From: Psammoneis japonica
Lineage: Eukaryota
Direction: 5' to 3'
DNA: 42,168 bases
NCBI GenBank assembly: GCA_008632985.1
Contig: QPGO01000138.1
Span: forward strand, 186,001-228,168
The notes below the pieces were generated by a model that was not told the origin of the DNA, did not search any database, and was given only the letters and a program-made list of their open reading frames with translations. The translations under genes and the position numbers were made by a program. This document shows, in pieces, positions 9,851 to 42,168 of this stretch (positions are counted from its first letter, which is position 1; the number at the start of each line of letters is the position of its first letter).

Positions 9851-10160
9851 ACGAGGAATCATATTATTATCCAGTGTTTAATAAAATTATTAGCCTAACT
9901 TGCCAACTCAACGGAAATCGCGGATGGTTCGGTGCGTTTTTTCCCGCCATTTTTTTTCCCGGGCCAGGGGCCGACAGTCCAAGGAAAGATCTAATCAGGA
10001 AATCACCTGTCCTGTATTCAACTATTTTAGTATCCATGTCGGCGGAATCCGACGTGTCAAGCAATCTGAAATCGAAATCAACCAGTCAACTTGCACTCCA
10101 TCGAGGTGAGAAGAGGCGGCGACGCGCTTGAGAACAGTTAGTCAACACGTTCCGCAGATC

Positions 10161-12832: not shown

Positions 12833-12859
12833 GGTGACTAATTGTTCATAAGGCTATCG

Positions 12860-14960: not shown

Positions 14961-15111
14961 GTCCCAATTCAAATAGAGTCTTTTTAACAAGTGATAAAAA
15001 ATGATTGCTACTTTACTGCGGTTAATGCAAAGCAGAGTTGTGACGAGAAACGGAGACAACAGCCAACAAACAGAAAAGATGGTGCAAAACCAATTGTTGA
15101 GCTCAGACCGG

Positions 15112-18458: not shown

Positions 18459-19207
18459 CGTCTTGGCTGATAATTTCCTTTTTTGAAGAACGTTTCTTGT
18501 TGTTCTCAAAGCCGCTTCAGGTGCACTAATTTTCTCGATACGGATGATCTCTGATTTGTGAATTGCAAAGAGAGCGTTTGCGATTGAGAGGAGCCCCAGA
18601 GCTTACTTATCTTCACTAAACCAATGTTTCACTACGCGCAACCTGCAACCCTGCTTCTCGAACGATTTCTGGGCTTCGGTCGTCGGTCGCGAGTCCCCAA
18701 AGCTCCCAAGTTTCCCGCGTTGTTAGTCGTGGGTTCGGTGCATGACGTCAGACAAATCGCAGCAGTCGTACGTACAGTCCGAAGTCATCAGTTCGCTTCC
18801 GTGAAAGAAGAGCAAAAACTGCATTAAAACTAACTCGCACTGCGAGGAGGCAACAGAGCTGTGCAACTTGAAGCCATTGTAATCTGCTCATGACCAACAA
18901 CTGCTCGAAGTGCCTTTGAATCAGTGCCTGGCACTGCCAACTGATCGGCCAAGGCAACGTGGGTCATGTGCGCCACGCTGACACCCATGCTCTCCAGTGC
19001 ATTCCAGAGGAAAAGCAAAGATTTCTGTTTTCCCACAGAGATGTGTGCTTGTGCTTCATCCAATTGCAAACACTTCCACTGAACAGTTGCACAGCAGACC
19101 ACAAGCAATCTGGGTCGACTGCTGCTGTCACTCACAGCTTTGGCATGGAGAGCATTTAAAATGTTGGAGCTCTTCGTTGTTGTCGTTGGAGTTGGAGTTT
19201 TTTGTTT

Positions 19208-19314
19208 TTCATTCTTCATTCTTTGTTCTTTGTTCTTTGTTCTTCGTTCTTCATTCTTCATTCTTCATCATTGTTGTTGTTGTTGCTGTCGTTGTTGTTG
19301 TTGTTGTTGTTGTT
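19208..19314. repeat. Heptamer array TT(CA/TG/CG)TTC followed by a (TCA/TTG)n trinucleotide tract
   Basis: Units ttcattc, ttcattc, tttgttc x3, ttcgttc, ttcattc x2, then tcatcattgttgttg. Confidence 0.9.
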
Positions 19315-20599
19315 GATGTGCTCCAGTTCCCAGGTGACGCACAAAACGACAATCAATTTTGAATGTAAATTGTGCGTCTTTAAGTGCGCAGAGCATTTTC
19401 ACATGAAACACTCAAGCGGATTGGCTTTTGCAGGCGTCCACAAGTGTGAACATTCAAATGGTTTTTTGTGGGGCATTCAAGTCCTCATGGGACATGTGTC
19501 ATCATCTCTCAACAACAAAAGAGTGAAATTGCAACAATTCAAAAACCACAAGCAACAAAGTGCTGAACCAAGACATTTTTTGCTGAGCCAGCATCCAAAG
19601 GGCAATTGATTTTTGCTGAACCAGTGCTGAATCAAAGCTCAATTTGTCCTGTCTCAATGAATGCAACATCACGCATGGCTGTCCTGTCCATCTCAGTGAA
19701 TGCAACGTCGCGCATGCAGCAAAGCTCCAAAGCCATCCCAGATTCTTTCTTTTTCATGGTGCACACGATGCTTCTTCTTTCCTGTGACCTTTTCCTTCGT
19801 AGCATGGAGTGCTCTTCAATGGTTGGGAATGACTTCATTGCCACCTTGTTTGTCATGTCTGGCGAGTTTTTGCCCGAGGCTCTCAATGTCCGAGTGAAAG
19901 GAAAAGCCAAAAGGCACAAGAAGAAAGGTGTGTTTACAATGTCGTCATCTGCTGTGTCATCTTGTGTCACATCATGTCATGTCGTGCCGCATCACATGGG
20001 GCCCCACTGTCACATTGTGCCACATCACATGACATGATGTCATGCGACATGACATGCTTGACATCACTTGGAGACAAGACATTGAAGATGAAGTCACTGG
20101 AACATCATTGTTTTCACACATGACGTCATCTTCACTGCGACATCATGTCACTTTTTGAGCAAAAAATGTCCCACTTTCCGAGTCAGCCGTGCTGAGCCGC
20201 TGAACCAATGGTTTGTTTTTTACATTGACTTCCTCAGTGGACTCAATGCTGATTGCACGTCAGTGGATTTACACTGCAATTTCTTTGCATGCAGAAAACC
20301 CACCAAGCAGCATCGTAGAAAGATGTGTTTGGGCAACATCCAAACAACGGCAATGTTTTCGCCGAAAATCATCCGTTGTGTCACGAATCTTTTAACACAA
20401 TGAAAAACACACTGTAGACAGCACAATGACAATGATGTTGCAACACTCACACAAGTTTTGTTGGTGTTGCAAAACATTTGCACTTGGACAAATCTGTGCT
20501 TTTGGTGGTGAAAGTTCGATCGCAAGTCAGGGGCCGCGCAAAAATCACGCAAATGTTGTTTTTGTGCACGATTTGGTTCGCGCGGGGCTGGAACACGTC
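19315..20599. mobile_element. MITE family B, copy 1, interrupted by an insertion of about 720 bp (about 19501-20222)
   Basis: Ends GATGTGCTCCAG and CTGGAACACGTC, flanked by tgtt/tgtt; segments 19315-19500 and 20223-20599 align to 24069-24634. Confidence 0.85.
19940..20150. repeat. Degenerate pentamer satellite (tgtca/catca/catga-like)
   Basis: tgtcatcttgtgtcacatcatgtcatgtcgtgccgcatcacat...cacatgacatgatgtcatgcgacatgacatg. Confidence 0.65.
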
Positions 20600-20621
20600 T
20601 GTTGTTGTTGTTGTTGTTGTT

Positions 20622-20881
20622 GTCCTGTTCCAGCTCCAGGTGCTCCGCGCGGGTTCGATTCCCATCATTTGGAAATTTGTGCATTCAGCGCAGTTGACTT
20701 TTTCCAAATCCGTTTTTTGCCAAATCGAAGGGTGAGTGTGCACTTTGCATGCATTTTCGGGTGCACACTCACCTTTCGATTTTCGAAATGATCAAAATTG
20801 AAGGAGTTGATTGCACTAAACTGCGCAGAAAATCGGCCTCTCGAGTGATGAAAAGCAGAGCACCTGGAGCTGGAACAGGCC
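20622..20881. mobile_element. MITE family A, copy 2 (260 bp), inserted in a (TTG)n tract
   Basis: Ends GTCCTGTTCCAGCTCCAGGTGCTC and GAGCACCTGGAGCTGGAACAGGCC; collinear with 8688-8947; flanked by tgtt/tgtt. Confidence 0.9.
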
Positions 20882-20894
20882 TGTTGTTGTTGTT

Positions 20895-20925
<31 letters not shown>

Positions 20926-21020
20926 TTGCTGTTGCTGTTGCTCTTGTTGTTCTTGCTGCTCTTGTTGTTGTTCTTGTTGTTGCTCTTGTTGTTGTTGCTG
21001 CTGTTGCTGTTGTTTTGTTG
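20882..21020. repeat. (TTG/CTG/TTC)n trinucleotide microsatellite
   Basis: tgttgttgt...gctgctgttg...ctcttgttgttcttgctgct; source of the spurious poly-Q, poly-L and poly-N ORFs. Confidence 0.95.
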
Positions 21021-22495
21021 CCAAATGTGTCTCGCCAGCACTTGCATGGCCACATGTCAGCCTCAAGTCACGCTGGCGGGGCAAGTGATCTTGCACACAG
21101 CTCACAAGATGTGCGTCAGGAGCTCAGTTGTTTTTCTGGCAAAGAACTTCTGTCAAGGAATTGGGGAATTGTGCGCGTTTCACAGTGCTCCCTTTTTTGC
21201 TGGCATTGCAAAGGTCAACTTCCATGAAGTGCAGCATCGAAGCAGAGAATCGTGTGACAACTTTGTGTGTTCACACTGAGCTCCCAGTTTTGGCAGTGAT
21301 CAGTGATGAAGGCACTGCTTGTTCCACTTTCTTCAAATGCTGGTTGACCTCAATCATCCGCTGTTTGAGACACACCCGCCAATCACAGCTGCTTTGATCA
21401 TGTCCAGTTGGCTGTGTCGTGGCTGAGAACTTCTCACCTGTGTCCTTTGGCACTGCAAAGTGCAGACTGTGCTGCTGCGGTGCACTTCATTTCCAGCCCG
21501 GTTTGCAGTGCATTTGTTTTTGGCAGATCTGGCCTTTGACTGCAGGCCACAGAGTCATGATCTGAAAGGCAGCACACACTTCTTGTGGTGAGCAACATGA
21601 AAGCATCTGTTGCTGGCATGTTGCAGGATGGGTTGAGCCAAGCTGCTTTGTCTGCAATGTCCTGGGCTGGAGAGTGTGTTTGGTTGAGAGTTTTTGTGTC
21701 CTTCTGAAGGATTGTGGTTTTTGGCAGCTCCAAGATCATTTTGTTTTAGAGCCAACCTCCTTTGTGGGAAATTTCCCACCAGCTGCCAGTCGTTGAGCCG
21801 CGCATGCCCAAAACAAGACTCCATGCTTGCCTCCCACAGCACCAACTCTTTCACATCAGTGAAAGAACTCACCAGCTTCAACTTTTGTCTCGAGACAAAG
21901 AGCCATGGCAAACATGAAGGCAGTGCCACAGACTCCAATCTTTTCTTCAGCAGGGGTGTGTGTGTGTGTTGGTGAACAAGTCTGTCAATGACCTTCTGCC
22001 ATTTGTGCTTCTCGAGACAAGGCTGGTCATGATGATGCTGAGGAGTGAAGTGGCACCCACAATCAAAGTGACATTCACAACTGCCTCTTGAGCAGCGTTG
22101 GCAGCAAAGGCATGCCTGGAGATGCCTTCCAGATGATGACAACATTGTCATCAATTGTCTTGGCTGCATTTGGTTGGAATGCCAACAATTGTTGTTGTGC
22201 AGGCGAGCAGCTCCGGGCATGTCCAAAATTCAAGCCATCGATCCCATCAACTCTGATCTTTTTCCATTGAAATAGCTCTCTGTACTAGCCATTGCGCATT
22301 ACATGTTTTACTGTATAAGAATCAAGCTTTGCAAAACACTAGTGCTCTACAATTTTTTCTTAATTTCTATCAAATAGGATTCATTCCTTACAAAGTCGGC
22401 CACCTACGCAGCTCCGCATGCCCCATGCTTACCTTGAAAGGAACAAACCCCAATACTTGATAATCGCTGGATTCGTTTCTTCGCCACCTCTTAAA

Positions 22496-23789: not shown

Positions 23790-25850
23790 ATGAAGAGGTT
23801 GACACATTGGTTTGTTCTCCTGGGGTGCTTTGGTTGCTGCACATGCCACAAACGGTTGCGGGCCTCGACTCGTGACTTGATTGCCGCGCGGTGCGGGTGA
23901 CATCTGAATGGTTGACAACGTTTCCGTGGCAAGTTCTTTCTGTGTTTTCTAATTTTGTGCTGTCTAGATGCTTGCTAAAGATGTTGTTTGTGTGTTTTGT
24001 CACAGCTTCACAGGTGGCTTGATCATCTCGTACAGTCGACTGTCGCTTCTGCAACATCGACAGCTTTTGACGTGTTCCAGTCCCAGGTGACACACAAAAC
24101 GACAATCAATTTTGAACACAATTTATGTGTCTCTGGTGTGTGGAGCATTTGAATGTAAAATGCTTGGGCAGATGGGCTTTTGCAGGTGTTTAGAGCATGT
24201 GCATGTAAATGGTTTTTTTGTTGGCACTCAACTCCTCATGGGGGATGTGTGTCACAAACTTCCTCTGCAGACTCAACACTGATTGCACGTCAGCACATTG
24301 GATGCAGATTTTTGGTTGCAGGTGGGGCACCTGCCAGAAGGTCTTGCAGAAAAATTGTTTGGTTCGACAATCAAATGACGGCAACAATTTTGCCGAAAAC
24401 CATCCATCATGTTGCAACGGACGATTCATTTGTCACAATGTTAAAAACATGGATGGCACAAAAACAATGACATTGCAACACTGACACAAGTCTTGTCAGT
24501 GTTGCAAAACATTTGATTTTGGACAAATCTGTGCTTTTGGTGGTGAAATTTTGTTTGCAAGCAAGAGACCGCGCAAAAATCGCGCAAAGATCATTTTTGC
24601 ACACGATTTGGGTCAAGTGTGGCTGGAGCACGTCTTTTTCATGGCATTTGCACCACAAAAGCACATTTGTTTGGGAGCCTTGTGCTTCACCCCGCTCCAC
24701 ATCCTTTGGTGTGACTGTTGTTGATGTTGAGATGGACTTGTGACACGTTTGACATCCTTCTTGGGTCTTGGTCAGCGCATGACAACGGCGTGTCATTTTT
24801 GTGGCGTCGCAATTTCTGAAAAGTGTGTGCCGTGGAAACAAATCAATGTGATGGAGCACCGAGGCTGCTCACAACATTGGGATTTGTCAGACAGTCTTGT
24901 TGCTGTCCACAGAAGATGTTCCAGTGAGTGTGATGTGATTGATTGGCTTTCAGACTCGTTTTGACAAAATTCTCATTCCCTCACGAGCCTTTTTTTGTGA
25001 GTTGCAGGTTCATCTGTGCAGGTGTCTGGTCATTTTTGACCCTTTCCTCTCATTCTTCAACTGTGTTGTCTTCACAATCTAAGACATGATGCAGTCCATG
25101 TTATTTTTGGAGATCTTGGTGGTGCAACCACGTTTCTGGGCTTTGCACTTGGCAAAATGAAGAGGTGGAGGACAGCCAAGCCGGGCACCTTGCCTCCTCT
25201 TGGTTGCACAGATCCCACAAACCGCTGCCTTTGCTGGGTTCCATAAAATTTGGTGGAGTCACTCAGAACTGCCTCTGGGAGCTTGTGTGGTGAGTGTGCA
25301 GTGATGTGTGCCCTCATTGGTTCATTGTTGTGTGCTTTGTTCCACTCACATTTGCACCTTCTTGCGCTTTTGTCAGTTTGCCAGCGTGGACAATCTGTGA
25401 CCGCAAGAGCCACATGACATGTGTTCTTTGACAACATTTGTTCATTTGGGGAATCAGATCCTGGAGTTTTCATTGTCCAGTTGCAGACAGATGTGGAAGA
25501 TTGACTTTGCTGCAGCAGTCGAACGTGCAATTGTGCATCTCAACGGCAGAGTCAGCAGCGAGTGTGCACATTGTCCCATGAGCACTAAAGCAGCAGACAA
25601 CATGTTTAGATCTAGATGGCTCAATGGCTGTTATTGTTTGTTAGTCTACCAGTGTTTGTTAGAGTTGCGACTGTGTTGGAGCAACATCATGGTCACACCA
25701 GGTGTTCACACTCAATGCGGCGGCAGCACGGTGCACAGTGCGGTGCCGCGTACATTACATCATGCGCATGCGCGGAGCCCTCACTTCTTTCTTCTTTTGC
25801 GCGGTAGATAGCCAGCTCATTTTTTGTGTTGCCCTCGATCAAAAGATCAG
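23790..25850. repeat. TpA-depleted repeat block 4 (less complete depletion)
   Basis: TA is rare from about 24000 to 25600; contains MITE family B copy 2. Confidence 0.75.
24069..24634. mobile_element. MITE family B, copy 2 (566 bp, TIR GACGTGTTCCAG / CTGGAGCACGTC, TSD TTTT)
   Basis: Inverted termini, tttt on both flanks, collinear with the two halves of 19315-20599. Confidence 0.85.
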
Positions 25851-26090: not shown

Positions 26091-28688
26091 TCACCACGGT
26101 TTGTGGTGTTTCTTTACAGGTCCCTTCTTTGGTGGATGTGCATGTTTCTTCTGATTTCCTGAACCGTTGTGTTTTTTCCAATGAGGATGATTGCGATTTT
26201 GAGCCGGCTTTTTCGGAGCCTTTTGATTTTTCCCACGATGTTTATTATGTTTTGCATGCCATGGTCGCCAGTTTGGGTTGATCATGCTTGTGGGTGAACG
26301 GGTCTTTTTTTTGACTTGGGTTGGTGCTCTTGTTGTTGTTGTTGTTGTTGGCGTTGGGGTTTTCCGCTTGTTGGGTTTTGGTGTAGGACGATATTTGGCA
26401 TGCCATGGGCGCCAGTTTGGGTTGATCCTCGTTGTTGGACGGGTCGTCGCTTTTGGTGGTGGTGGAGCACTTGTTGGCTTGGGGCTCAATGGAGTGGTAG
26501 TCGGGGGTGGTGTGGGAAACCTTGTTGGAGGCCTTGTTGCAAGTACCGGGGTACGCGTTGGCTTGGGGCTTGGCGGAACGGTTGGAGGCGGAGTAGGGCC
26601 CTTTGTAGGCTTCTTTGTTTTTGGCACCCTACTAGCTGTGGGCTTGGGGCTCGGCGGCATTGTGGGTGGCAAAGTGGGACTCAGTGTCGGCGCCAAAGTA
26701 GTGGGCTTGAGGCTTGGTGGCAAAGTCGGGGGCAATGTGAGAGCAAGAGTTGGTTTCAGTGTAGTTGGATCGAGGCTTGGTAGAGGCGTTGGTGTCGGAG
26801 TGGGACGAGTTGTGGGAGCTGGTGTTGGTGCTTCCGTGTTCACACAGGCGTTGAAATATGAACATTGACCAGTGAAAGAGTTGCACGTATCCACTGTACA
26901 TGGGTCATTGTCGTTACAATCGGAATCCTTTTCGCACTCAACGGCTGTTCTAAAGCTCGCGACTTGTGCTCTCACATCATTGATGTGACGGGCACAATCG
27001 CTGTACTCGTCACCCAATGGTGCAGAGTTTACTCCATCATACTTGATCTGAGGAGACATCACGCGAAACCACGAAGCGGTGAGTCTACCAACAGCGGTAT
27101 TACCTTGACGTTCGACTGGCGCACTCTTACCGCTTTTAGTGGAGTTGAGAACCTCTGGGCTCTCGGACAATAACCTCCTTTGTTGTTGTCACATTGGCCA
27201 GAAACACAATTATAAGCCATTATGGTACGGAACCGGGCTTGAGGATCTCTCCACCCAAAGTTGTACACATCCTTGTCCACGCAGTTTCCTTTCTCCCCTC
27301 GATCGTGGTCGCAACCTAACCAACCAAAGAGCACAATGGGGCGACTTGGCGTTAGTTGCAAAACGGTTGTTGAAGACTCGCGTTCACACAAGGACAGGCT
27401 CACCCATGTTGTGTCCTAAGCACGTCGAAGTACAGCAAAAAAGAGACGAGAAGCCAGTCAGTTGCACACAACATGACTTCATTGATGTCAGCGACAATTA
27501 CGGAAGAACGCAAGAACAGCGAATGATGACTTGCCAATCTCGTGCCCAAAGGTGAACATCCCGCTAGTGGCACACCACCACATCGTGACAGAAAACATAA
27601 ATTCATCTATTGGTCCAAGCCAACCAAGTCCACAGATCCCATCATTGTCACCCGCCACAATCAGAGCAACAAGATCGGCTCCGTACTCATCGCGTTTTTC
27701 ATGAACGTCATCCATTTTCCCGTCGCCGCTGAAGGTGATATCGTTAAGGATATCATACGAACTGCTGGATTCATCGTAGGTCTCGTCTCTGTAGGCATGA
27801 ACAAGGCGGAGTTGTGTATGAATTCCACTTTCGGTGTATGCAACGTTGGTCTCTTCGATCGCTAGATCTATCAGCCCCATCATTCCTTCGGTTGTAGCTT
27901 GGTTGATTTGACAGTTCACTGGCTTGAATACTCGTGCACACTCTGTATGATTTGAGGAGTGGAGAAAAAGATTGGGATGGGTTAAAAGCAATATTCTCTA
28001 GTCAAAGGCATTCGCAATCAAGTTCCAACCAAATGTTGCACCTACCTGCCTCTCTTGTCCACACAACCATTACGTCAATAGTATCGCCATTATCACTAAC
28101 AAGCTTTCGTCGAATGCCATTCTCGTCGAAATCAAATCTTGGCTTTGACCTTACCACCTTGGAGAGTTTTCGCTTCACACTTTTGAGCTTTCTATTAGGA
28201 GCCATGCCATTCTTGGGAGGAACGAGAGGATCGGGTTCAGGTGGGACATCAGCCCATGGAGTTACAGTCAGTCGAGTGATTGCAAATTCGTCCGGTCCAA
28301 ATCGGTAAACATTGTTTTCGTCCGACATGGAACCAAAGTACAACGTAGTGTTTGGGCCAGGGCCACGTGTCTCCAGCTCTCGAGTGACCATGTCCATCGA
28401 TGCTAGCCCAGATTCCCCATGAAACTTCCCTCTTCGACGTCGTCCAGTTTGCTTGAATGTTCTAGTAATTCCTTCTCCAAGCTCAATTTCGATATCTTCA
28501 ATGTCCATCAGGTCCCCTTCACGCAAGTCTGATATATCGAATTGGCAATAGTTACTGCCCGGGCAGCCTTGAATCTTTTTTAGTCTCTTCTTGATGCCTC
28601 GTGTTTTCCAGCTTCCCAAGTTTGCGACCTTTGCGGAAGCGATAGTAGCCAGAATCATCATAAAGGCAATTTGTAGATCAATTCTCAT
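26091..28688 (-). CDS. Second secreted reprolysin/M12B-type zinc metallopeptidase; exons 28688-28046, 27942-27535, 27415-27404, 27315-27131, 27047-26091
   Basis: Signal peptide, IDVMVVWTREAEC, spliced zinc motif HEIGHNMGCDH, CNDNDPCTVDTC repeat, PT stalk and K/H-rich tail. Clear paralogue of 1288-3370, sharing the intron after RFSTPL. Confidence 0.88.
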
Positions 28689-28899
28689 TGGTACAATTTC
28701 TGCAGTAAGGGGGATTATTTGATATCTTTGTCCATTGCGTTGAAATTTGTGGCGGGCGCGAGAAGATGTTTGGACAATCGATGATGCGAATGCGGATTTG
28801 CTCTGTCGTGGCGGCAAAAAATGAGCATCAAAAAATTCAAAACAAGAATTGACAAAAGACTCAGTAGGACATTCCGTAGATTTCTACGCAATAATTGTA

Positions 28900-31800
28900 C
28901 ACAGTTTGAGTCGTGGCCAGTTTGGCAGCAAAAAAAGCTCGAGCGTCTGAATGCAGGCGCAACAGCTGTTGGATCTTCTTTTGTGCCGCATCACCGGGTT
29001 ACAGTGTGCGCAGTGTCATTGCTGACCCATGCTGGTTGCACATTTTGGGCTCTCATCTGATTGTGTTAAAGCACTCCCAGTCTCGCTCAACGGCCGCACA
29101 GCCTCCCCCCAGTTGCTGCCCTGAGCTCTGATCTGTCACGCCAGTGCTGCCGTGTTGGCGACAGCAGCACCACAGGCTCTCACCCACCAAGGCAAGTGCT
29201 CAGGATGCACACACATGCACAAAAGGAAATTGTTTTTCTTTGCTTTTCATCTGCATCATCATGTGTCAAGAAGACAGAGCTGCGCTTGTTGGCGTTTCTC
29301 GGCGTGCAAAAATGTTCTGTGCCCCAAGCCGAAGGCCCGAGACAGCCCAGCCATCCCCTTGCTCTCCCCATGCATTTTCAACAACTGGCATTGATGACAA
29401 GGAAAATGAATGCTTGTCAGATCCAGAACAAGTTGGAAATGCAGGTGGAAGTGGCTGGGTGATGTCATTTTCTGTCAGTGCTCTTGATGCCCGGACAACG
29501 CTCGCACACAAAGTCTCAAGCACACCGCTGACTCTTCTCAAGACCAGCCAGCAACAATGTCTCCAGCCACATCTTTTCTTCTCAGCACTCTTTGGCACCT
29601 GGTGCTGTTGTTGTCAGACTCATCTTGGGCACACAGGAGGAGGCATGGTGAAGACCAGAGTGGCCAGATCTCCACCAGGAGCTTCTTCTCACTCTTTGGC
29701 ACCCAGCGCTGTTGTCACCAGACACATCTTGGGTGGACAATGAGTGCCCTGTCAGGTTGTTGAGGCTCTCCTTTTGCTGCTCATCTCCACCCTGTGCACA
29801 CGGTGCCAGTTTCAGAGACCAGCTCTTCTTTGGGTGGCGGCTCTTTTCAGCTCTTTTGTGCTCCTCTTGTGCCTTGAGCTGGCTGACCAGCTGACTTCCA
29901 TCATTGGTGCAGCCCCAAGAAGGCACTCTGTGTTGCTTTGCAGCATCATGCAAAGTCAGTGTCAGCATGAGCTTTGCAGCACTTTTTGTTGTGCATTTTT
30001 TGTCAATCACAGCATCAAAAACAATTTTTTGGCACCACAAAGTCAACTTGTTGACTGCCTTGACAGCTGCACAAAAGCAATCATTGTTGCCCTGGCATCA
30101 CACACCTCAACAATGATGGCTCACACACTTGCATGGCTGCTTCATCTGCAGACCTGCAGGTGGCACCCTCAACACATTGTCCTGCCTTGCAAGTGACAAG
30201 TGTGACACCAGGGCAGAAGCTTGTGTTCGTTGAACTTGCCTGGACATCATGGCTTGTGCTCCTTGCACTTGCAGCTGGTGCACAACTTGTGCACATGTCG
30301 ATGCACCATGTTGCATGCCATGGCTCCAAATTTTGGGAGATGAGGAGGATGTGCACATGTCCACAATGCTGCAAAAAGCATGACTGCAGATGGGCTCAAG
30401 AAAAGCAGATGACATGGCTGAGTTCTGTGGTGGTCGCAATGCACAAAAGTGAGTGTTTCAAACAAAGATGCATGTGATTGTTGACGAAGCTGGTGTCAGA
30501 CATTGTGCAGCAGCACCATGCTCAACATGATGCAGGTGCAAGCACTCGCATCTCTGTCTGGAAGGAGACAGCACACAGCACAAACACACATGCTTTGAGC
30601 AGTGCAAATGAGTGGTCACCAAGCAGTCAAGTCAAACCCAGACAAACCAGCACATGGAAGCCAGCTTTTAAATCCAACAGGCAAGTGTTGGGCTGGCTTT
30701 GTCAAGAGTGGTGGGAGAGCCCTGGGTGTGTGGCCAGGGTTGTTGTTTTTTCTGCTGCAAATTGTGCTTTTTCCACATTGCAAAGAACAGCATGTTTTGA
30801 CAAGCATGTCAAGTCTGGCAGTCAGACATGCTGTCGTCCATGTGTCACATTGCAGTCCCAGAAATTGACTTGTGCAAATGTGCTGTGACCTTGACAAAAA
30901 ATCCAACATGTGCACGTCATGTCACCTTCTGTCATGTCAGTTGATTTCCACTTCTCTGGTGTGCCTGACCTTCACCCAGGGGAGGGACATTTCTCATGGT
31001 GTCTCAAGGTTCTTGACAGCTCTTTGTTTGTGCAGGAGTGACTGGAGTTTGCTGGGTGCAATTGGGTGCTGCATGTCTTTTGAACAAAAGCAGCAGAGAA
31101 GCAGCCAGTCAAAATGCCCAAAACAACACCTCATTTCACAATGAGCAAAAAAAAAGGACAAAGCAGCAGAAGAATCTGGTTGGCTCATTTTTGCACAAAC
31201 TCAACATCAACAGCTCTTCCAGCAGGATGTGGCTGGTTGCAGCAGCAGCCTGCTTTGAACCTGCATGTGGGGCCAATTTCGTGTCGCGCACCTCAACTTT
31301 GCAGGCCACACATGACAGCATTGTCATTTGTTTTTTCTGTGCACAGCTGCACACTCAAAAGTTGCAGCCACACTGAGAACAATGCAACATGTGCATGATG
31401 CAATGAAAAAAAAGACCTTGTGCACTGCAATGGAAAAAGGTCACAAAAGAAAAAGTGGAGTTTTGCTGCAGAGAAAAAGTTGTTCAGTGCAGCCGAGTCT
31501 TTTTCAGTGAGCAAAGTGCGCAAATGAGAAATTGTGTTGCAGTTGAGTCACATCCAAACAAACACAATCATGTGGAAGCCAGCAGGGAAACCCACCAGGT
31601 GTCAGGCTGTTTTTGATGAGAACAGTGAGAACCTTGGCGCGGGTGCGTGTGGCCGCGGATTTTTCTTGGTCAACACAGTCAAGTCTTTTTCAGTGACTTC
31701 AAACACTTGCAGAGTTACTTTGGCCTGCCACAGTCCTGGAGTTGCATTGCTGCAAGCTTTGGCCAGCTTGTCTTTTTTGAGAGAAAGAAAGAGGCTCTTT

Positions 31801-32150
31801 TCATGACCATGTGCAAAAAGAGCAAGCCAGCACCAGAGGGGCAGTCGTCCTTCTTCTTCTTGCTTGGCTGAACTTTCGGAATCTCCCAATGAACTTTCTG
31901 GCAGTCATTTCACCTGGCTTTTTCGTGGATTGTTGCATGTGCCATTTCTGTTTCTGAATGGGTCTGAGAGGGAAAACATGTTCAGAGGTGACTGCGCAAT
32001 CATCCATGAGAGCAGTGATGCGAGGTCGTCTCGAGGAAACAACAAACCGCGAATCATCCTCGCGCATCTGTCCGTTTGGTCGCTCTCCCCACGAATTTTT
32101 TTGGAATTTTGTCGAAAACCGCGGCCGCATTGAAGTGTGACGCAGACCTT
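28900..32150. repeat. TpA-depleted block 5
   Basis: Between about 29070 and 32150 I find only two TA (about 30669 and 31716); TA returns abruptly at about 32154 (ccgtatcgaatagacgtaga). Confidence 0.9.
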
Positions 32151-32299
32151 CCGTATCGAATAGACGTAGATTTCTACAGGGAATTGAGTTTTCAAAAAAT
32201 CGGCACTTCTGATGCGATAACGGTATTTTGCTGATTGCCCTCGACGGTTTATGTTGCTGTTATTCATTGTTGTTTTTCTTGTCACGACCTTTATACACC

Positions 32300-34797
32300 A
32301 TGTCTGAACCCAATAAGGCGCAAGAGATTAACCTGTTATTGTCAGAACAGAATGTGAATATGTGGAAACTCCGAGAAATGGCCTTGACCGAGGGAGGTCT
32401 CATGAATGGTATGTTGTGTTTCGTTGTTTTGAAGTTTTTCTGTGCACCCGCGTGCACGAACCATCTCTCATCCGCTGTCGTTGCTTTGCGTAGATACCAT
32501 TCGAAAAAGGGCTTGGCCCAAGCTTGTGGGGCTGCATAGTGAAGAAACAGCATCGGATCATCCTCAACAGTCCTTATACGACGAACTCTACACGTTGCAA
32601 GCGGAACGCAAATCGCTTCCCGAAATTATCGATGATTCTACTTCCTTGACACCCACCAATTTACAAGAATTCAATCAAGCCAGCAAGGGGAAAGACAAAA
32701 AGCTTGAATCACTGTAAGTTTCAGAGGGCGGAAGTATGCTTCTGTTGTTGTTCATGTGTTGTTTTATTCAACTTCCCCCCCTCTCTTTTCCTTAGCAAAT
32801 CCCAATCGCAACAACAACGAAACAATGCTGTTGTAGAAAGTTTGGATGCCGATCAGATTCAACGCGACGTGGCCCGCTGTACGTGGCACCTCTTGACGGG
32901 CTCGCAACGGTCCCGCCGGTTGCAAATGAAAAACAAGTCCAAAAAGCGAATTGCTTCTCTTCTTTTGAAAAAACAGAGGCGATTGGCCGACTTGATAAAT
33001 TTGACCTTGGTGCGGAGCTACATGCACCACGCGTCGTCCGAGGAACGATTGCATTATTATCAAGGATATCATGATGTCGCGTGCATTTTCTTATCGGCCT
33101 TGGGTGGCGGTGGGAGTGGACCACTACTAGCACAAGAAGAAAAGACAAAAACACCCATGGATACCAAGGCCCAAGCCATGGGATTGGATTTGCCGTCGCG
33201 TGTCTTGCTGCAAATCTCGGAAAACCATTTACGAGATGTCATGCGCAGCAGCTTTATGCAACTCCAAGCAGCGCTCCGGCTTGTCTTGTTTCCACTGATT
33301 GGCGTGTTTGATGCCCAGGTGCACTCGTTTCTGTGGGATTGTGAGATGGAGCCCTACTTTGCCTTGAGTTGGGTCATCACGTGGTAACTTTCGCCTGCAA
33401 GTGCATTTCTGTCTCTTGTGGGGGGTCAAAGTCTAACTATTTTTTGCATCAATGATTCATAGGTTCAGTCACGACGTCCGGGACACGACGCTCGTCAAGC
33501 GCTTGTTTGATGTCTTTGTGGCGAGTCATCCACTTTTTCCCATCTACATGAGTGTCGCCATGGTGACGCATCCAACCAATCGAGCAGATGTGTTGCGTGC
33601 AGATTGGGGAGACTTTTCGGCTGTTCACCAGACGCTGGTGGGACTGCCGAAAAACTCGTGCTCCGTGGGATGGAAGTACAGTGTGGGGGATGGGTACATT
33701 TCGGGCGATGAAGAAGAGGATGATACAACGACGCGGAGTACGGATAACATGGAGGTATTGTCGGAGGAAATGGGACGAGACGATGGTGGCGGCAGTCAGA
33801 GCATGATATCTTCCGACTTGATGCATGTTGGGGCCAATACACGAGTTCCGTTTCAAGAGATTATTGACTTGGCCATTACATATATGTGAGTTTGAATCGC
33901 ATCGTTGATTTTAAGTCGTTGTTTGTTTCCATGTATCTCATTTGTTGTTTTGTTTCTCTATTTCTGCTAGGCGCCGAATCCCTCCATGCAATCTCTTGCG
34001 ACTAGCGCAACGCTACCACACTCAAGACGATTCTTTGTTGTCCAACACGTCGTCCATTGCGCTCTTGCAGCCTCCACCGAGTTGGGCCCTGGCCTTGGTG
34101 GCACCGTCGGATTGGATCTTGAAGCAACGGGCACGAGAAAGCCACGGCATGTCGGCCACGAGCCGCAAGGACCGAAAAAAGCGACCGTCGCAACAAGAAT
34201 CCAACGTCAAAGTGTTGCTACAGAGGAAAGTGACGTTGATGTGTATTTGCAGGAACACAAGAATTCCATTGCCGTGATTGCGGCCGGTTTGGACCCGGAG
34301 ACGAAAAGGAGAGGCGATGGAAGCGCCAAAAGAAGCTCTTGGTACGAGTAAGCGTCGCGGTTGTCGTGGTTGCAATTGCGTACGGCGTGGCGATGCAATA
34401 CCGTCCTGCACTGGAAGCCGCTTCCCCGCAGCAAGAACGACCAAAGAGACAAGAACAAACGAAAATCAAAGAGCCAACAAAAATCAAAGAGCGAACGTTG
34501 GTAAAGAACGCAACGAAACCCGCCAGCAAGAGAGCACCTGAAAAGTTGACACGACCCGCCGCCCAACCCATGACACAACCCAGACGTCCTATTGAAGTTG
34601 CGGTCCGTCCAGTGGTTGAGAAGAGTCGTCCACAGCAACATGTCGTGGAGAAAAAAGACGGAGCTAGGTCGAAAGCTCGTGAGATTCTATTGGAAGTCGT
34701 TCTTCGATTCGGAAGCGCCGTTCTCAAATTCTCCCGCGCCTTCTTTTGGGACGTGTCGCCCTTTGGATTGTATCAAAAGTATCAACAGCAGCATTAA
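32300..34797 (+). CDS. TBC1D20: TBC1D20/Gyp8-like Rab GTPase-activating protein with a C-terminal TM segment; exons 32300-32408, 32494-32713, 32796-33383, 33463-33885, 33971-34797 (last exon has apparent frameshifts)
   Basis: LREMALTEGGLMNDTIRKRAWPKL, QIQRDVARC, LHYYQGYHDVA, YFALSWVITWFSHD, RLFDVFVASHPLFPIY; canonical GT-AG introns. Confidence 0.88.
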
Positions 34798-37132: not shown

Positions 37133-38700
37133 GGGATTCGGATTCGCATTTTTTTTATTTTCACTCCCGAGTTTCGAGGTCGCGGATTTTCGTGGGACTC
37201 AAGGCTGGCTCATGCGTGACTCAGGGCCCATTTAATTCCCCGACTCCTCACTCATTGCAGGATGGAACCATGCGCAGAAAACACAGCCATGACTCCAGCA
37301 GTTAGGGTGTGACTACTCGTCACACGGGCAGTCGAGGTGAAAGTTGATGATGGCGGCAAGGCAATCGAATGAAAGAACAAAACTCAGGGTTGCTCTTTGG
37401 CGGGTCCGAATTGGGCTGCAGCACAGCCAAAGTGCGCTGTGTCAATTCGACAGACAGCCACATTTCTTTCAATGAAAGACAGAGTTCCAGAAATTTACAG
37501 AAGGCATTGAACATTCTTCCTCTGCAAAAGCAAAGCCTGCAAATTTCCCTTTGTGCCAAGCTTGGACACCACAGCCATCACAAGCAGAGTGTCTCAGGTC
37601 CACGAAAGAACCCACACCACGGAAAGCACGACACATGCCGCCCACTTGTGTTGTGCTTCAGCACCCACATCATCTTTGCCATTGTCTGTCACTCCACCCC
37701 ATTCATAGAACAGATTGCTGGTCAGGCTCTCCTTGAATGCTGCTCCCTGAAATCTCGTTCAAATGCACTGGTGTGGACGACATTTGGTGTGCCGTCTTGA
37801 GTTGCTGCCTGAGTTCATTGCTCACTGCAACTGATGCTTGCACATTCATGATGCAAAGAAGCTGGTTGCTCATCATTTGACTTCTGATGTGACTGGAAAC
37901 TCTTGATGATCTTGGTGCTCCCAGCTGTGCGTGCTGTTGGCTGCAACAGTCGTTTCTCTTGGGATTCGGACTCGCATTTTGATTTGTCACTCCCGAGTGT
38001 CGAGGTCGCGGATTTTTTCGTGGGACTCAACGCTGGTTCATGTGTGTGCAGGATGGAACCATGTGCAGAAAATGTTGGCAAAAGCCACTGATGAGTCTCA
38101 CCACATGGGCATTCGAGGTGAAAGTCGACGATGGCGGCAAGGTGACGAACGAAAGAACAAAACTCAGGGTCTTTAGCCAATCAGAAGTGGACCGTGGTCC
38201 AGAGTGCATTGTGTTGACATTCAACAGACGATCGTGGTTTTTTCAATGAAAGACAGAGGCCCAGAAATTGACAAAAAGCATTGAACATTCTTTCTCTACG
38301 AACAAAAAGCCTGCTGATTTCCTTCAATGCCAAGCTTGGACAAACCAAAAGCACCTCGGATCCGATGATGGAATCTGCATCCCGGAAACCGCCACGCATG
38401 CCCTCCCCTAGAGTGTTTGCACTTCAGCACCCATGTCATCTTTGCCCTCATCCGTCGCTCCATCCCGTTTGCGGAGTTGATTGCTGGACAACTCTCCCAA
38501 CCAGCTGCATCCAACAGCAGTTTCTTTTCAATGCACGTGCACTCTAGATGGCTGAAATCACACTCAAATGCTCCAGCTGGCAGACATGGCATCGAACGCA
38601 TCATCTGAGAGCCAGGACACACCGTCTCGAGTTGCTGCCTGAATGCATTGCACACCACAACTGCCGCTGGCATCTCATGAAGCAAAGAAGCTGGTTGCTC
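37133..38700. repeat. Diverged tandem duplication, period about 828 bp (37133-37871 and 37961-38700)
   Basis: Shared anchors gggattcgga..cgcatttt, cactcccgagt.tcgaggtcgcggatttt, gcaggatggaaccatg, gaaagaacaaaactcagggt, gccaagcttgga, gcaaagaagctggttgctc. Confidence 0.9.
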
Positions 38701-39120
38701 TCAATTGACTTCCCTTGTCTGTGGCTGACCGCAAGAAAGACTTGATGTTTTTTCGTACACTTCCATCCCCTTGTAGAACCAATCCGGTTCTTGCAGTTGA
38801 TCTCCCTCAGCACAGAGCTTCACAATGCCTGCTCTGAATTCAGGGGGATTGCGAAGAGCCGGAGCCGATCCGTTGGATGCAAAGAAATCCAGTTCCAACA
38901 CTGTCTTGCCCTTGCTCACTTTTTCTTCTTGAGTGATCCTTAAAATCTCCTTCATGATTGGGACAAAGTTCGCAGTGACAAATGAAAAGATCATGCGCTG
39001 CGTGCCCGTGGTTGCTTTCTTGAATGTTCTGTTGGCTGGATCACAAATCGTTTTGTGTGCTTTCCAATCAGCTGCCTGCGCAAGAGCGAATGCAACCACA
39101 CCACGTGAGACCATCATGCT
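38570..39120 (-). pseudogene. Decayed MYND zinc-finger protein gene
   Basis: MMVSRGVVAFALAQAADWKAHKTIC matches the MYND C-terminal Q..DWK.HK..C pattern with upstream Cys ligands lost; it is followed by a plausible globular region (VLELDFF...APALRNPPEF...EPDWFYKG) and then frameshifts. Confidence 0.65.
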
Positions 39121-42100
39121 TGCCTCACAATCGATCTAAATGGAGTTTCAACAAACCTGGCAGTCTCTGGAACAGTGGAATGCTGCTTTGCATCGGCTGT
39201 TCCAAAACCGATTGCAACAATCACATCGCACATTGAACATGACAGAGAAGGAAATGTTGAGTGGATTGACCAAACACTGTGATGACACATCAACAGCATT
39301 GACAAAAATGGTGCTTGCCCGCATGTTGTCATGCCCATTTACTCAGATTTGCTGCAACAACAACAAGATTTTGCAATTGCCTGTGAGTTGGCCATGGTGG
39401 CCATGATGGCCTGAATGTTGTGGAGATGGATCATGACATGATTGTCCCAGCTTCCCTTGTGCCCATCTTTCCCCAATGATCTCCAACAAAATGTCACCCA
39501 CATGATGAGCACCTCACTTGAATTTCTTCTGCATTGATGATGTGCATTTCATGAGTTGATCCATCATTGCAAGGTGGCCCACAAGCACTTTTGAGTGAGG
39601 GCCCAGTTGTGCAATGCATCTGCCAAAATGGCCAGTCTGCAAATGACAAGGTCAAGCTAAAGTTGTTGACAATGCTTGGCACTGCTTTGGTCATCTCTGG
39701 ACATGGCAAACCAGTCCTTGGCAGAGCACAGGCTAAAAACTTGGCTGACACAGAGAGCAAGTTGCTCTTCAAAACAAGGTCAACAATGACAAATTGCACC
39801 ATGCTCAGAACTGGAGTTTCTCTGGCATCTCTTGATCATGTTTTGCTCACACCCTTGTTTTGACCCAGCATTTGGTTTTAACCAAGAGTGACAAATTTAT
39901 GTGGCAATGGCTCGTCAATTGACCCAGCTGTTTTGGACCCACTTGGCAACACACATCTTTGGCGGCATTCATGGCAACATTGCTCAACAGCCAATGCACC
40001 TTGACTGGAGACTCTCAGTGATCTTGATGCTCCTGACCACCTGTGTTTGACTGCAACAGTTTTTTCTGAGATCTGTCATTGTCCTTGTCCAGCGGAGTCA
40101 AATCAATGGATGGCATGCCAGCCAGAACAAATGCACTTGCTCCCACTTCCATCATGATGTCCACCTGTCATCCACCTGGAAGCCATGCTCTAAAGCAACT
40201 TTTCTCCATGACACAGTGTTCTTGATGGTTGTGAAATTGTGAGACTGTGCTGGGAATTTGTCAATGGCATGATGTTTTTGTTGAAACCTTGATGCTCAAG
40301 CTGAAAATGAAACTGTTGTTCAGATTTTGCTGGGACAAAAAACACAAAAAAATTCACACAGTGCACAAGAGCAGCAAAAGTCAGTCATGATGCATTTGAG
40401 GAGCAGCCACAAATCTGATTTGTTCTTCTGAGTCATGCTGTGTGGCCGGCAGTGGCTTTGCCAAATCTCATTCTGATCAAAGCTCTGCTGCATCTGTCGC
40501 TTTTTAAATTTGCTTGTTCATTCATTTGTTTGTCAAACAAATGACACAAACACCCCAGAGACATTTCTTGAGCTCGCCAAAGGAGAGAAAACAAAATGTT
40601 GTGCGCTGGTTGCCATTTTTGCCTCATTCACCCATGTGTCTGACAAGAGACATGAAGCCCTCTGCTCAACAAGGGCAGTCATCAATGAGAAAGCAGTTCA
40701 AGATGACAAGCAGCACACACTTGCTGGCTCTTTTCTTTTTTGTTTGTGGCGATTTTGTGGTGGATCAGCAAATGACAATGAACGTGGCAAGATGGAAGAT
40801 GCAGAAAACATTCTCTCTGATGCCAGTTGTGCTTGAGCACACCAGACCATTTTCTGGTGAGAAGAGACTGTTCATTTGCACACAAGAAACCAAGGGCAAA
40901 AATTGGCTTGATCAGGAACACAACTTCAATGAAAACAACAATTTTTGAAATCACTCATTTGCAAATTTTCATGACATTCAGGTGTCCACAATGCTTCCTC
41001 CTCCACAGCACCAAAAAGAATCAAACACAAAAACATTGAAACCCAAGAGACATTGAGGCAGTGGTGCAATGGACCAGGTGAGCAACTGTGCAGAATGTCT
41101 GAGACCACAAAACTTGCACAAAGTTGGCAGCTGACACCTCATTGTCCAGCACTCATTGAAAAGCAAGCTCAATGCATGAAATGGCTGGCAATGATCAGAT
41201 TTCATTGATGTCTCCTCTTTCTCTTCAACCCTTTTTTTGTCAATCTTCCAAGTCCTGCAAAAAGCTGAAGAAAACAGTTTTCAAAATGGCTCTGAGCCTC
41301 AGTGGCAGGTGCTTGCCGTGTTCTCATGCAGCCAAGCAATCACAAATTAATGGATGCTCCAAGCACCATTGCAGTCAGGCTGAAATTCTTTCAACTGCAT
41401 TTTAATTTGTTGACTCAGCAACATCCACTGACCCCCGACCCCCAACTCAGATTTGTGTTCATTCTCAACAATGTCTCTCCTTGTCAAAGTTGTCAAGTCC
41501 TGTTTCCAGTTTCCACGTGTGCAAGTTCTGTGGTCTGTGGCAAGGGACAAACAAAGCTGGCATTTCCCAGTTCCCCAACAAAGCTCAAGCTGTGCATTTG
41601 ATGATGTCCCCATCTGTTGCAAACAATGACCTGTCATGTGTGCACTTCTGACCCATGAGATTTGCACCCAATTGCAGTGTTGTTGCATGGTGTGTGTTTG
41701 CATTCTGACTCATGATGACAGCTTTCTGCTCCATGGAGAAAAATGTCACCAGCTCACATGGCAGTCCTTTGTCTGCAATGAGACTTTGTCATGACCTGAG
41801 TGCCAGTGGGTCAGGTGATGTTGTTGGGGGCAAGAGTTCAGGCAACTTGTGGCTGAATGCAGCAAAATGGCCTGCCCACTCTTCTTGGCATTGGGGGGGG
41901 GCATTCTCAGTTTTTTTTTTGTTGGAGTTGAAACTGCACAACATGATGATGCTGAGAAGCTTGCATGTGCACCTGACAGAAAAACACACTGTGTGCCAAA
42001 AATGAAACTCTCTAAGTTGTCCATTGATGGCATCTCCATTGTGTGTGTGCTGACAAATGACTGTGCTGGGTGGGGCGACCAAGTCACAGCGGCTGCAACC

Positions 42101-42168
42101 ACTCACCCTTGTCCCATTTTGAAAATGCAATTGCTGACCATGCATTTCTGTCATCTCTTTGATGTCGT

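Follow-up and report, generated by a model that had tools for sequence, protein, structure and literature searches.

Introduction

The familiar case of genome defence by targeted hypermutation is fungal RIP, which in Neurospora and other ascomycetes converts CpA to TpA, needs duplicated DNA and a RID-type cytosine methyltransferase, acts before meiosis, and leaves the DNA AT-rich and TpA-rich. Adenine-directed change is familiar from RNA; ADAR acts on double-stranded RNA and ADAT on tRNA, with A-to-G conversion that favours a 5′ U/T.

The only published parallel that we found for hypermutation that erases TpA is a 2026 preprint on Bigelowiella natans (Mettrop et al., bioRxiv 10.64898/2026.01.13.699255), which also draws the comparison with RIP. 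There, mutation-accumulation lines gave 231 changes in two integrated viral regions, of which 230 were A:T to G:C, every one at TpA. The larger hypermutable region is single copy and transcriptionally silent, and hypermutability ran about 21 kb past the annotated virus (integrated giant-virus/virophage DNA). For diatoms, a literature search with most subscription journals outside its reach returned no paper on TpA-erasing mutation. In Phaeodactylum tricornutum, PMC9998398 reports DNMT5 CG methylation on transposons that also carry H3K27me3 and H3K9me2/3, with genes spared.

Here we describe a ~3.2-kb non-coding spacer, the focal block, between two divergent genes (reprolysin-like and TBC1D20-like) in a diatom-like genome; the window is the whole stretch of 42,168 nucleotides that was analysed. 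The locus shares with B. natans a change that would strike TpA alone to give TpG/CpA on either strand, delimited regions, a single-copy target, and a long-term signature of low TpA with high CpA+TpG. The mutations were observed in B. natans, whereas here their direction is read from composition; the host is diatom-like rather than a chlorarachniophyte, and the target carries no recognisable viral or transposon hallmark. Loss is saturated, with about 2% of TpA left against a reported Rho of 0.45 in the NCLDV region of B. natans, and the borders lie within about 150-450 bp of gene starts. The accessible text of the preprint is silent on CpG, borders, flanks and trinucleotide context.

The likeness to RIP lies in a transition hypermutation specific to one dinucleotide, which would disable repeated or non-genic DNA where it stands and extend some way into the flanks. 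The chemistry and outcome are opposite, and RIP itself was rejected: TpA is nearly absent, G+C is unchanged at 0.47-0.49, and the focal block is single copy. Decay of the 5-methylcytosine (5mC) type resembles what is seen in the CpG-poor cores (CpG o/e 0.17-0.20, gain of TG/CA, genes near 1), but it accounts for the CpG part alone and cannot remove TpA, and here it extends less far than TpA loss and tapers off more gradually. With ADAR/ADAT the locus has in common a T/U before the changed A, together with a 3′-neighbour bias such as an enzyme reading a single strand should show; those are RNA enzymes, however, and here chromosomal single-copy DNA appears changed in place. RNA A-to-I editing fixed by retrotransposition was likewise rejected, there being no reverse transcriptase or other domain and no LTR, and the single-copy spacer being altered in place to 146 bp from a start codon.

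Results

A single-copy spacer nearly free of TpA

The focal block and its immediate neighbours comprise the following features.

26091..28688, minus strand: reprolysin-like metalloprotease gene (Pfam; putative gene model)
28899..32153, no strand: TA-poor domain, the focal block, with 4 TA in 3255 bp (two-state HMM on TA, and TA positions)
28899..29338, no strand: left margin, TA-poor (2 TA); CpG drops gradually, 18 CpG (o/e 0.57); CA+TG 21.4 per 100 bp
29339..31994, no strand: CpG-poor core (HMM on CpG), 27 CpG vs 156 expected (o/e 0.17), 2 TA, 625 CA+TG
29665..29666, no strand: one YpR step at which both adjacent letters differ, CA in the window but TG in a same-sample read contig
30669..30670, no strand: surviving TA in TTAA context, the most resistant class (sequence and survival model)
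31638..31657, no strand: isolated cluster of 5 CpG within the CpG-poor part (CpG positions)
31716..31717, no strand: surviving TA in TTAC/GTAA context (sequence)
31995..32153, no strand: strict right margin of 159 bp, 17 CpG (o/e 1.55), 0 TA, CA+TG 13.2 per 100 bp, not raised
32154..32175, no strand: right border, 4 TA in 22 bp straight after 438 TA-free bases (TA positions)
32300..32408, plus strand: first exon of the TBC1D20-like gene, putative limits (ATG 32300, GT donor 32409; sequence reading)
32650..33387, plus strand: largest exon of the TBC1D20-like gene (Pfam RabGAP-TBC E 1.6e-5, 25.1 bits vs cut-off 25.2; PDB TBC1D20 4hl4/4hlq E 8e-10)

A preliminary description had pointed to a near-absence of TA between 29070 and 32150, and these 3081 bp indeed hold 2 TA (30669, 31716), against 107 predicted from the TA density of the window's non-block DNA and 198 from base composition (Poisson P about 1.6e-43). 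TA occurs at 29000, 29067, 30669, 31716 and 32154 and nowhere in between, leaving TA-free gaps of 1602, 1047 and 438 bp. The domain borders lie beside an AT-rich strip. The left border is 211 bp from the first Met codon of the reprolysin-like gene (28686-28688), and the first TA past the block (32154) is 146 bp upstream of the ATG at 32300, close to the 150 bp given earlier.

A 6137-nt read contig covers 28053-34189 at depth 60, equal to that of the flanking genes, and the focal block is therefore single copy. Self-BLAST of the window returned no partner for it, and neither LTR, TIR nor tandem array was found within it. Among 128 ORFs of at least 70 aa in the TA-poor blocks, none reached the Pfam cut-off and only sub-threshold chance matches appeared, in DNA that may be too decayed for recognition. 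The read contig, which comes from a run of the same sample and is not independent of the assembly, matches the focal block bar 4 letters in 3255 bp; it differs at 15 letters in 32154-34189, and read contigs can switch haplotype. One of three runs of the one sample (X2) has GT..AG joints and transcript-like behaviour, is not recorded as RNA, and gives no cover over 28356-32227; no weight was given to it.

A metagenome scan for an orthologous promoter with the largest TBC exon yielded 56 loci, the best (L001) at 47% protein identity, and none allowed the margin to be aligned. Two of the loci, L051 and L046, have only short motifs in common with the window. L051 was considered as a second example and rejected; its TA-free stretch (5699-6528) is a plain simple-sequence repeat and no replicate of the phenomenon.

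Six TA-poor segments in the window

In addition to the focal block, the HMM, with author-chosen parameters, delimits five TA-poor segments with step-like edges, giving six segments and 11 block edges in this one window.

8410..9861, no strand: block 1, without a CpG-poor core (49 CpG, 4 TA)
12856..14973, no strand: block 2; CpG-poor core 13228-14836
18881..22272, no strand: block 3; CpG-poor only from 20843
24207..25585, no strand: block 4; left part is a high-copy repeat (read depth 5500-7700 vs about 60 elsewhere)
37315..42167, no strand: block 5, continuing past the window end; CpG-poor only from 39228

TpA o/e is 0.03-0.07 in blocks vs 0.52 outside, and o/e of CA and of TG is 1.6-1.9 vs 1.13-1.19, while the four YpR steps summed stay constant (23.8, 24.5 and 24.5 per 100 bp). 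Cores have a CpG o/e of 0.20 against 1.00 outside, with genes spared and TG/CA gained, and G+C is 0.47-0.49 in blocks vs 0.48 outside. We simulated both losses by imposing TA-to-TG/CA change (95-97%) and CG-to-TG/CA change (40% or 82%) on the window's own non-block DNA. For TA-only zones and cores alike, the simulated CA o/e, TG o/e and G+C match those observed; the simulated GpC o/e is 1.03, a mismatch to the 1.27-1.31 found in blocks.

TpA falls as a step and CpG as a gradient

The TA-poor and CpG-poor states overlap over 10,014 bp, with 6,435 bp TA-poor only and 362 bp CpG-poor only. All five CpG-poor segments are nested in TA-poor segments to within 132 bp (HMM), and TA-free DNA reaches past the CpG-poor core at 8 of the 11 edges; at the other 3, the TA and CpG borders lie within about 130 bp of each other. 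Averaged over the edges, TpA o/e runs 0.52, 0.64 outside and 0.00, 0.08, 0.04 inside. Because TA positions defined the edges, the bins that adjoin an edge are circular; the 100-200 bp bins alone escape this, with 0.52 outside vs 0.08 inside. CpG o/e instead declines over several hundred bases (1.15, 0.77 outside; 0.83, 0.60, 0.33 ... 0.22 inside), and mean CA+TG, 14.7 outside, is 19.1 over the 100 bp just within the edge and about 22 deeper. The sharp TA boundary that had been proposed holds as a step across the 11 edges, set against a gradient for CpG. The accompanying claim that TA loss is wider than CpG decay and independent of it stands in its first part (6,435 bp TA-poor only, 8 of 11 edges); "independent" overstates the case, since the two losses are restricted to one and the same set of domains.

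At the focal block, the CpG-poor core that had been described is borne out by the 27 CpG vs 156 expected in 29339-31994. The right margin, placed earlier at 31630-32150 and thus ~520 bp long, does combine 24 CpG (o/e 0.76) with 1 TA, but the CpGs are uneven, with a cluster at 31638-31656, three scattered, and a dense 17 in 31995-32153, so that the strictly CpG-rich part shrinks to those 159 bp. Of the two similar margins named elsewhere, that at 12860-13100 was recovered (21 CpG, o/e 1.09, 1 TA); that at 37080-37220 is weak, with 1 TA in 141 bp vs about 5 expected, and falls outside the TA-poor segment that starts at 37315. CpG-keeping margins are not specific to promoters, because edge E4, with 12 CpG in its first 200 bp, is a 3′ flank. 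The spread of TA loss into promoter DNA that had been proposed is conjectural. The left margin of the focal block (28899-29338) is clearly mutated, since its CA+TG is raised, whereas the strict right margin may be either mutated but unmethylated or natively TA-poor, because its CA+TG is not. The first 200 bp of edge E3 likewise carry 29 CA+TG per 200 bp, the outside level, with no excess.

Probable direction of change and sequence context

Differences between repeat copies agree with a probable change from TpA to TpG/CpA. Six repeat pairs in the window yield 94 adjacent double mismatches, of which 33 are CA vs TG, against 4 for the mirror control AC vs GT; an ancestral CpG can also yield such doubles, and an estimated 9 or so of the 33 would have this origin, judging from 45 single CpG differences. 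Other genomic copies of block 4 retain TA where the window has TG/CA, for example at 25091-2, 25177 and 25567.

For the 52 surviving TAs, uniform survival is rejected (chi2 82.5, P 5e-14), and a model in which each strand is struck separately fits (chi2 1.66 on 6 df), with survival of A in T-A-N at 0.72 for N=A, 0.34 for G, 0.19 for C and 0.05 for T. Applied to the TGN products, these rates also give a better fit (chi2 from 106 to 61). Strand-wise tracts were not detected by a runs test on TG/CA order, z being -1.74 to +1.05 in blocks and no stronger than in controls (-0.32 to -2.78).

Discussion

Two probable superimposed mutation processes

The data are probably best explained by a hypermutator that turns TpA into TpG/CpA and saturates a sharply bounded silent domain, with a slower CpG decay superimposed. 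As to chemistry, we infer that the first process would convert TpA to TpG or CpA (A:T to G:C), most likely by deamination of an adenine that follows T, on either DNA strand; it would favour a pyrimidine 3′ of the A and have run to saturation throughout the step-bordered domain. The second would convert CpG to TpG/CpA more slowly, probably through deamination of 5-methylcytosine, as expected for methylated silent diatom DNA, and would act most strongly in the interior and more weakly toward the borders and in some gene-side zones. In margins that lack TA and keep CpG, the first process would be complete and the second barely begun, the DNA being either little methylated or younger. With its rate ratio set to the 1.62 of the cores, a single-clock model would leave 109.6 TA in the TA-only zones, against 28 seen (P 1.5e-20); this rejection depends on the cores' ratio, in that core TAs may be a floor of resistant contexts and a ratio of at least 30 escapes the test.

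The TA-only zones admit other readings, of which two are possible though rather doubtful. The border strips (31995-32153, 12856-about 12985, 14837-14973) might be unmutated, native CpG-dense and TA-poor DNA such as promoter or boundary elements, lying where the mutated domain ends or marking its end. Their CA+TG (13.2, 16.9 and 15.3 vs about 14.5 per 100 bp outside) and their CpG density, at 10-13 per 100 bp roughly double that of genes, agree with this, as do CpG-dense, TA-free stretches of about 200 bp in coding DNA of the window (23103-23304, 34014-34219). However, TA gaps of at least 150 bp number only 6 of 900 in non-block DNA, and the probability of at least 159 TA-free bases after a random position there is 0.0076; three such strips at 11 edges are therefore unlikely, unless their placement is functional. 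Averaged CA+TG is, moreover, already up in the first 100 bp inside (19.1 vs 14.7), and 5.3 kb of larger TA-only zones, with CA+TG of 19.7-21.6 per 100 bp, would be left uncovered. Gene position might also be irrelevant, with the TA-only zones being younger insertions that were quickly hypermutated and have yet to lose CpG, and the cores being older; we give this no greater credence than native strips. Recognisable repeats with 68-91% identity do lie in the TA-only zones of blocks 1, 3 and 5, and the left part of block 4 is also repeat-bearing, at its read depth of 5500-7700, and was called CpG-poor by the CpG model at a CpG o/e of 0.49-0.67, while the focal core lacks a partner in the window. 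Yet block 2 has a 90.5% identical tandem duplicate inside its CpG-poor core, the focal margins are free of repeats and single copy, and averaged CpG drops smoothly away from the border, which suggests a positional effect.

It is improbable that one deaminase acts on both adenine and cytosine in DNA, very efficiently at TpA and weakly at CpG, with the CpG gradient reflecting dose. Both losses are confined to the same domains, a rate ratio of at least 30 would be compatible with the single-clock test, and ADAT2-type enzymes are reported to deaminate A and C in DNA, as cited in the preprint (10.64898/2026.01.13.699255). The same source, however, gives 230 A:T-to-G:C changes vs 1 other in the hypermutable regions of B. 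natans; the strips at E3, E4 and E10, with CpG at or above gene level, hold 1 TA vs about 23 expected; and methylated silent diatom DNA is expected to lose CpG anyway. Dispensing with a mutator altogether is very unlikely to be correct, whether by selection against TA (a TA-cutting nuclease or a TA-targeting transposase), by GC-biased gene conversion, or by an artefact of sequencing or assembly where a base is modified. Genes are themselves somewhat low in TA (o/e 0.52), but the focal DNA is non-coding, single copy and without domain or repeat structure, and repeat copies differ as CA vs TG at the same step. Biased conversion sits poorly with equal G+C in and out of blocks (0.47-0.49 vs 0.48), and an artefact with the same-sample read contig that reproduces the block, 4 letters off in 3255 bp, although its chemistry is unrecorded and it is not independent of the assembly.

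Implications

More specifically and more tentatively, chromatin domains may steer a DNA mutator that rewrites TpA wherever this diatom's DNA is silent. Such an activity would act on single strands, prefer a pyrimidine 3′ of the A, and need neither repeats nor cytosine methylation; its step borders would fall at an AT-rich strip by each gene, past the CpG-losing zone by about the length of a nucleosome (137-159 bp at two edges). Its context rule, TAT > TAC > TAG > TAA, can be tested against any candidate deaminase. The step-like borders predict the end of a guiding chromatin mark, and the TA-free, CpG-rich strips predict DNA that is mutated but unmethylated.

Should the pattern prove genome-wide, it would go beyond the B. 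natans preprint in showing saturation on single-copy spacer DNA up to gene borders in a diatom-like genome, a reach that differs from that of CpG decay, and a measurable 3′-neighbour preference. In practical terms, composition-based gene and repeat finders would misread about 40% of the window. If the chromatin-guided proposal is true, the map of TA-free and CpG-bearing DNA would preserve, as a heritable fossil record, the respective limits of heterochromatin and of DNA methylation.

TA-poor segments and their genomic context

A two-state HMM on TA called six TA-poor segments in the window, which cover 16,449 of its 42,168 bp. They are listed here with the two predicted genes that flank the focal block.

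TA-poor segments and starts of the flanking genes
8410-9861: TA-poor segment (block 1)
12856-14973: TA-poor segment (block 2)
18881-22272: TA-poor segment
24207-25585: TA-poor segment (block 4)
28899-32153: TA-poor segment (focal block)
37315-42167: TA-poor segment
28686-28688, minus strand: first Met codon of a reprolysin-like gene (predicted gene model), 211 bp from the focal block border
32300, plus strand: ATG of a TBC1D20-like gene (predicted gene model)

The DNA between the segments carries ordinary genes (CpG o/e near 1, TpA o/e near 0.5), including fasciclin, two reprolysin-like genes, VTC, an HGH1 homologue whose nearest Atlas cluster is chiefly Bacillariophyta, ribosomal protein uS5, and the TBC1D20-like gene. 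In a Pfam search of the blocks themselves, none of the 128 ORFs of at least 70 aa taken from all of them reached the cut-off. The two reprolysin-like metalloprotease genes, 1648-3370 (+) and 26091-28688 (-), lie in opposite orientation ~23 kb apart, carry Dictyostelium-type Cys-rich repeats, and are joined by a weak DNA match (1855-1921 with 28046-28109). Contigs of sequencing run X2 (listed 'DNA?') at 27077-27139, 35803-35885, and 33382-33462 skip GT..AG intervals or bridge a gap, and this run therefore behaves like transcript data; its joints support introns in the reprolysin-like, TBC1D20-like, and a neighbouring gene.

The focal block sits between the predicted reprolysin-like (-) and TBC1D20-like (+) genes, which are divergently oriented. 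Its TAs fall at 29000, 29067, 30669, and 31716, with none in between, and the first TA past the block, at 32154, is 146 bp upstream of ATG 32300. Within 29070-32150 (3081 bp), two TAs occur where the non-block TA density of the window predicts ~107 (Poisson P ~1.6e-43), and the interior (29339-31994) holds 27 CpG versus 156 predicted from base composition. The preliminary description had reported the two TAs at about 30669 and 31716, a CpG-poor interior, and the distance to the ATG; its coordinates and counts were correct, and the TA-poor observation is confirmed. The largest exon of the gene opened by this ATG matches the solved TBC1D20 chains 4hl4 and 4hlq (E 8e-10), and its Pfam RabGAP-TBC score of 25.1 bits is right at the threshold (25.2). 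A metagenome scan for this gene found no close orthologue; a TA-free stretch (L051:5699-6528) on a contig from a seawater metagenome, which also encodes a distant TBC relative, was rejected as a second example because it consists of simple-sequence repeats.

Nothing in the focal block reveals where it came from: a search for LTRs, TIRs, and tandem arrays found none, and self-BLAST of the window gave it no partner. A 6137-nt read contig from a same-sample run covers 28053-34189 at depth 60, equal to that of the flanking genes. Given this depth and the lack of a self-BLAST partner, the block is single-copy DNA today. The left part of block 4 (24000-25000) has a read depth of 5500-7700 versus ~60 in neighbouring genes, and is therefore part of a repeat family with about a hundred members. 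The CpG-poor core of block 2 contains a ~250 bp tandem duplication (13392-13885, 90.5% identity). Between read contig and window, 4 letters differ in the 3255-bp focal block, 15 in 32154-34189, and 0 in 28053-28898; these uneven counts may reflect a haplotype switch within the contig, not a true difference in diversity.

Probable conversion of TpA to TpG and CpA

CA and TG are enriched in the blocks (o/e 1.6–1.9, versus 1.13–1.19 outside), while the four pyrimidine–purine steps summed hold steady at 23.8–24.5 per 100 bp despite this rise. A simulation imposing TA-to-TG/CA and CG-to-TG/CA changes on the window's own non-block DNA matches cores (CpG-poor segments) and TA-only zones (TA-poor without a CpG-poor call) alike in CA, in TG, and in G+C. 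GpC o/e is 1.27–1.31 in all six blocks, against 1.00 outside and just 1.03 in the simulation, and the words GCGC, CGGC, and CAGC occur in blocks at 1.7–2.7 times the level obtained when only TA and CG are converted; the simple two-process model leaves these excesses unexplained.

Among 94 adjacent double mismatches in six repeat pairs of the window, 33 oppose CA to TG, compared to 4 for the mirror control AC versus GT. Such a mismatch is the signature expected if a single ancestral step changed in different ways in the two copies; an ancestral CpG could also yield it, and by our arithmetic accounts for an estimated ~9 of the 33. Other genomic copies of block 4 retain TA at TG/CA sites of the window (e.g. 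TATA versus TGCA at 25090-25093). At 29665-6 in the focal block, the read contig has TG and the window CA.

The TAs that survive are not a random sample. With both neighbours known, 52 lie in blocks and 901 outside; TTAA (13 versus 43) and CTAA (14 versus 82) persist in blocks, whereas ATAT (0 versus 61) and ATAC (0 versus 125) are absent, and uniform survival is rejected (chi2 82.5, P 5e-14). A model that treats hits on the A of either strand as separate events accounts for all ten context classes (chi2 1.66, 6 df); in it, the A of T-A-N survives at 0.72 when N is A, 0.34 when N is G, 0.19 when N is C, and 0.05 when N is T. Putting these rates into the simulation improved the fit to TGN products (chi2 106 to 61). 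The two surviving TAs of the focal block are both in resistant contexts. This pattern points to an enzyme reading one strand at a time.

Borders of TpA and CpG depletion

The preliminary description had suggested profiling both dinucleotides across block edges, and all 11 edges inside the window were aligned.

Edge profile, 11 edges
TpA o/e outside, toward the edge: 0.46, 0.48, 0.51, 0.52, 0.64
TpA o/e inside, away from the edge: 0.00, 0.08, 0.04, 0.05, 0.07
CpG o/e outside, toward the edge: 1.14, 1.07, 1.08, 1.15, 0.77
CpG o/e inside, away from the edge: 0.83, 0.60, 0.33, 0.46, 0.49, 0.34, 0.30, 0.22
CA+TG per 100 bp: 14.7 outside (farthest bin), 19.1 in the first 100 bp inside, ~22 deeper

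Bins touching the edge are circular because edges were placed at TA positions, but those 100–200 bp off are free of this, and they show TpA loss as a step completed within 200 bp and CpG loss as a gradient. The 100 bp just outside the edges form an AT-rich strip with 61 TA in 1100 bp (11 by construction) and 36 CpG, versus 36 TA and 78 CpG in the next bins out, possibly a sign that promoter or terminator DNA free of nucleosomes lies at the border.

CpG-poor HMM segments are nested within TA-poor ones (10,014 bp both, 6,435 bp TA-poor only, 362 bp CpG-poor only). TA-free DNA outreaches the CpG-poor core at 8 of the 11 edges, by 137 to 1962 bp, and in block 1 throughout the block. At the other three, the CpG-poor call overshoots the TA border by 106–132 bp into AT-rich DNA (G+C 0.32–0.42) whose composition predicts just 3.0–5.8 CpG. 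A one-clock model that holds the two rates at their ratio in the cores (1.62) leads to an expected 109.6 TA in TA-only zones versus 28 seen (P 1.5e-20), a test that is weaker if the TAs left in the cores are a minimum set by resistant sites. The proposal that TA loss is independent of CpG loss and wider thus stands for width at 8 of 11 edges, although both share their domains.

The margins of the focal block differ. The left (28899-29338) has 2 TA, and 18 CpG (o/e 0.57) decreasing inward; with CA+TG at 21.4 per 100 bp, it is clearly mutated, yet CpG is kept. The right (31630-32150), described earlier as CpG-rich, is mixed and comprises a 5-CpG cluster at 31638-31656, three scattered CpG, and 17 in 31995-32153; only this last 159-bp strip (CpG o/e 1.55, zero TA) fits the description. 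In non-block DNA, a random position precedes at least 159 TA-free bases with P = 0.0076, making a chance origin of the strip unlikely. CA+TG in the strip is not raised (13.2 per 100 bp); like the strips at the left and right edges of block 2, it may be DNA that is natively TA-poor and CpG-dense and lies at the border. Of two further margins proposed as similar, 12860-13100 bears this out (21 CpG, 1 TA), and 37080-37220 is weak, with 1 TA versus ~5 expected and a position outside the TA-poor segment. The strip at the right edge of block 2 lies in a 3′ flank, with a stop codon 139 bp away; CpG-rich, TA-free strips are therefore not promoter-specific. Overall, the earlier inference is partly supported: TA loss outreaches CpG loss at most edges, and it may have spread into former promoter DNA.

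Interpretation and relation to known systems

The best reading, which we hold to be fairly probable, has a single silent domain subject to two processes: a TpA mutator that runs to saturation and a slower, nested CpG decay. The former would convert TpA to TpG/CpA up to step-like borders near genes; the latter, probably 5mC-driven, would proceed inside the TpA-mutated domain. RIP requires duplicated DNA and shares no more than the logic of this process; both its chemistry and its product run opposite to the TpA loss here, and the focal block displays neither RIP-type chemistry and product nor duplicated DNA.

Our literature search returned one relevant work on TpA-erasing mutation, the preprint of Mettrop et al. 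(bioRxiv 10.64898/2026.01.13.699255). It describes mutation-accumulation lines of Bigelowiella natans in which two integrated viral regions gained 231 mutations, 230 of them A:T to G:C and all of these at TpA. The larger of the two regions is silent and present in one copy, the hypermutable stretch runs ~21 kb past the annotated virus, and an ADAT-like adenine deaminase is proposed. The text makes no mention of diatoms, CpG, borders, or flanks, and has no neighbour-context analysis of surviving TAs. In Phaeodactylum tricornutum, a further study describes DNMT5-dependent CG methylation on transposons bearing H3K27me3 and H3K9me2/3, with genes spared (PMC9998398), so silent DNA of diatoms is expected to lose CpG. 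Three results are new here: the contrast between a TpA step and a CpG gradient at the edges, the finding that a saturated block is single copy, and the 3′-neighbour rule.
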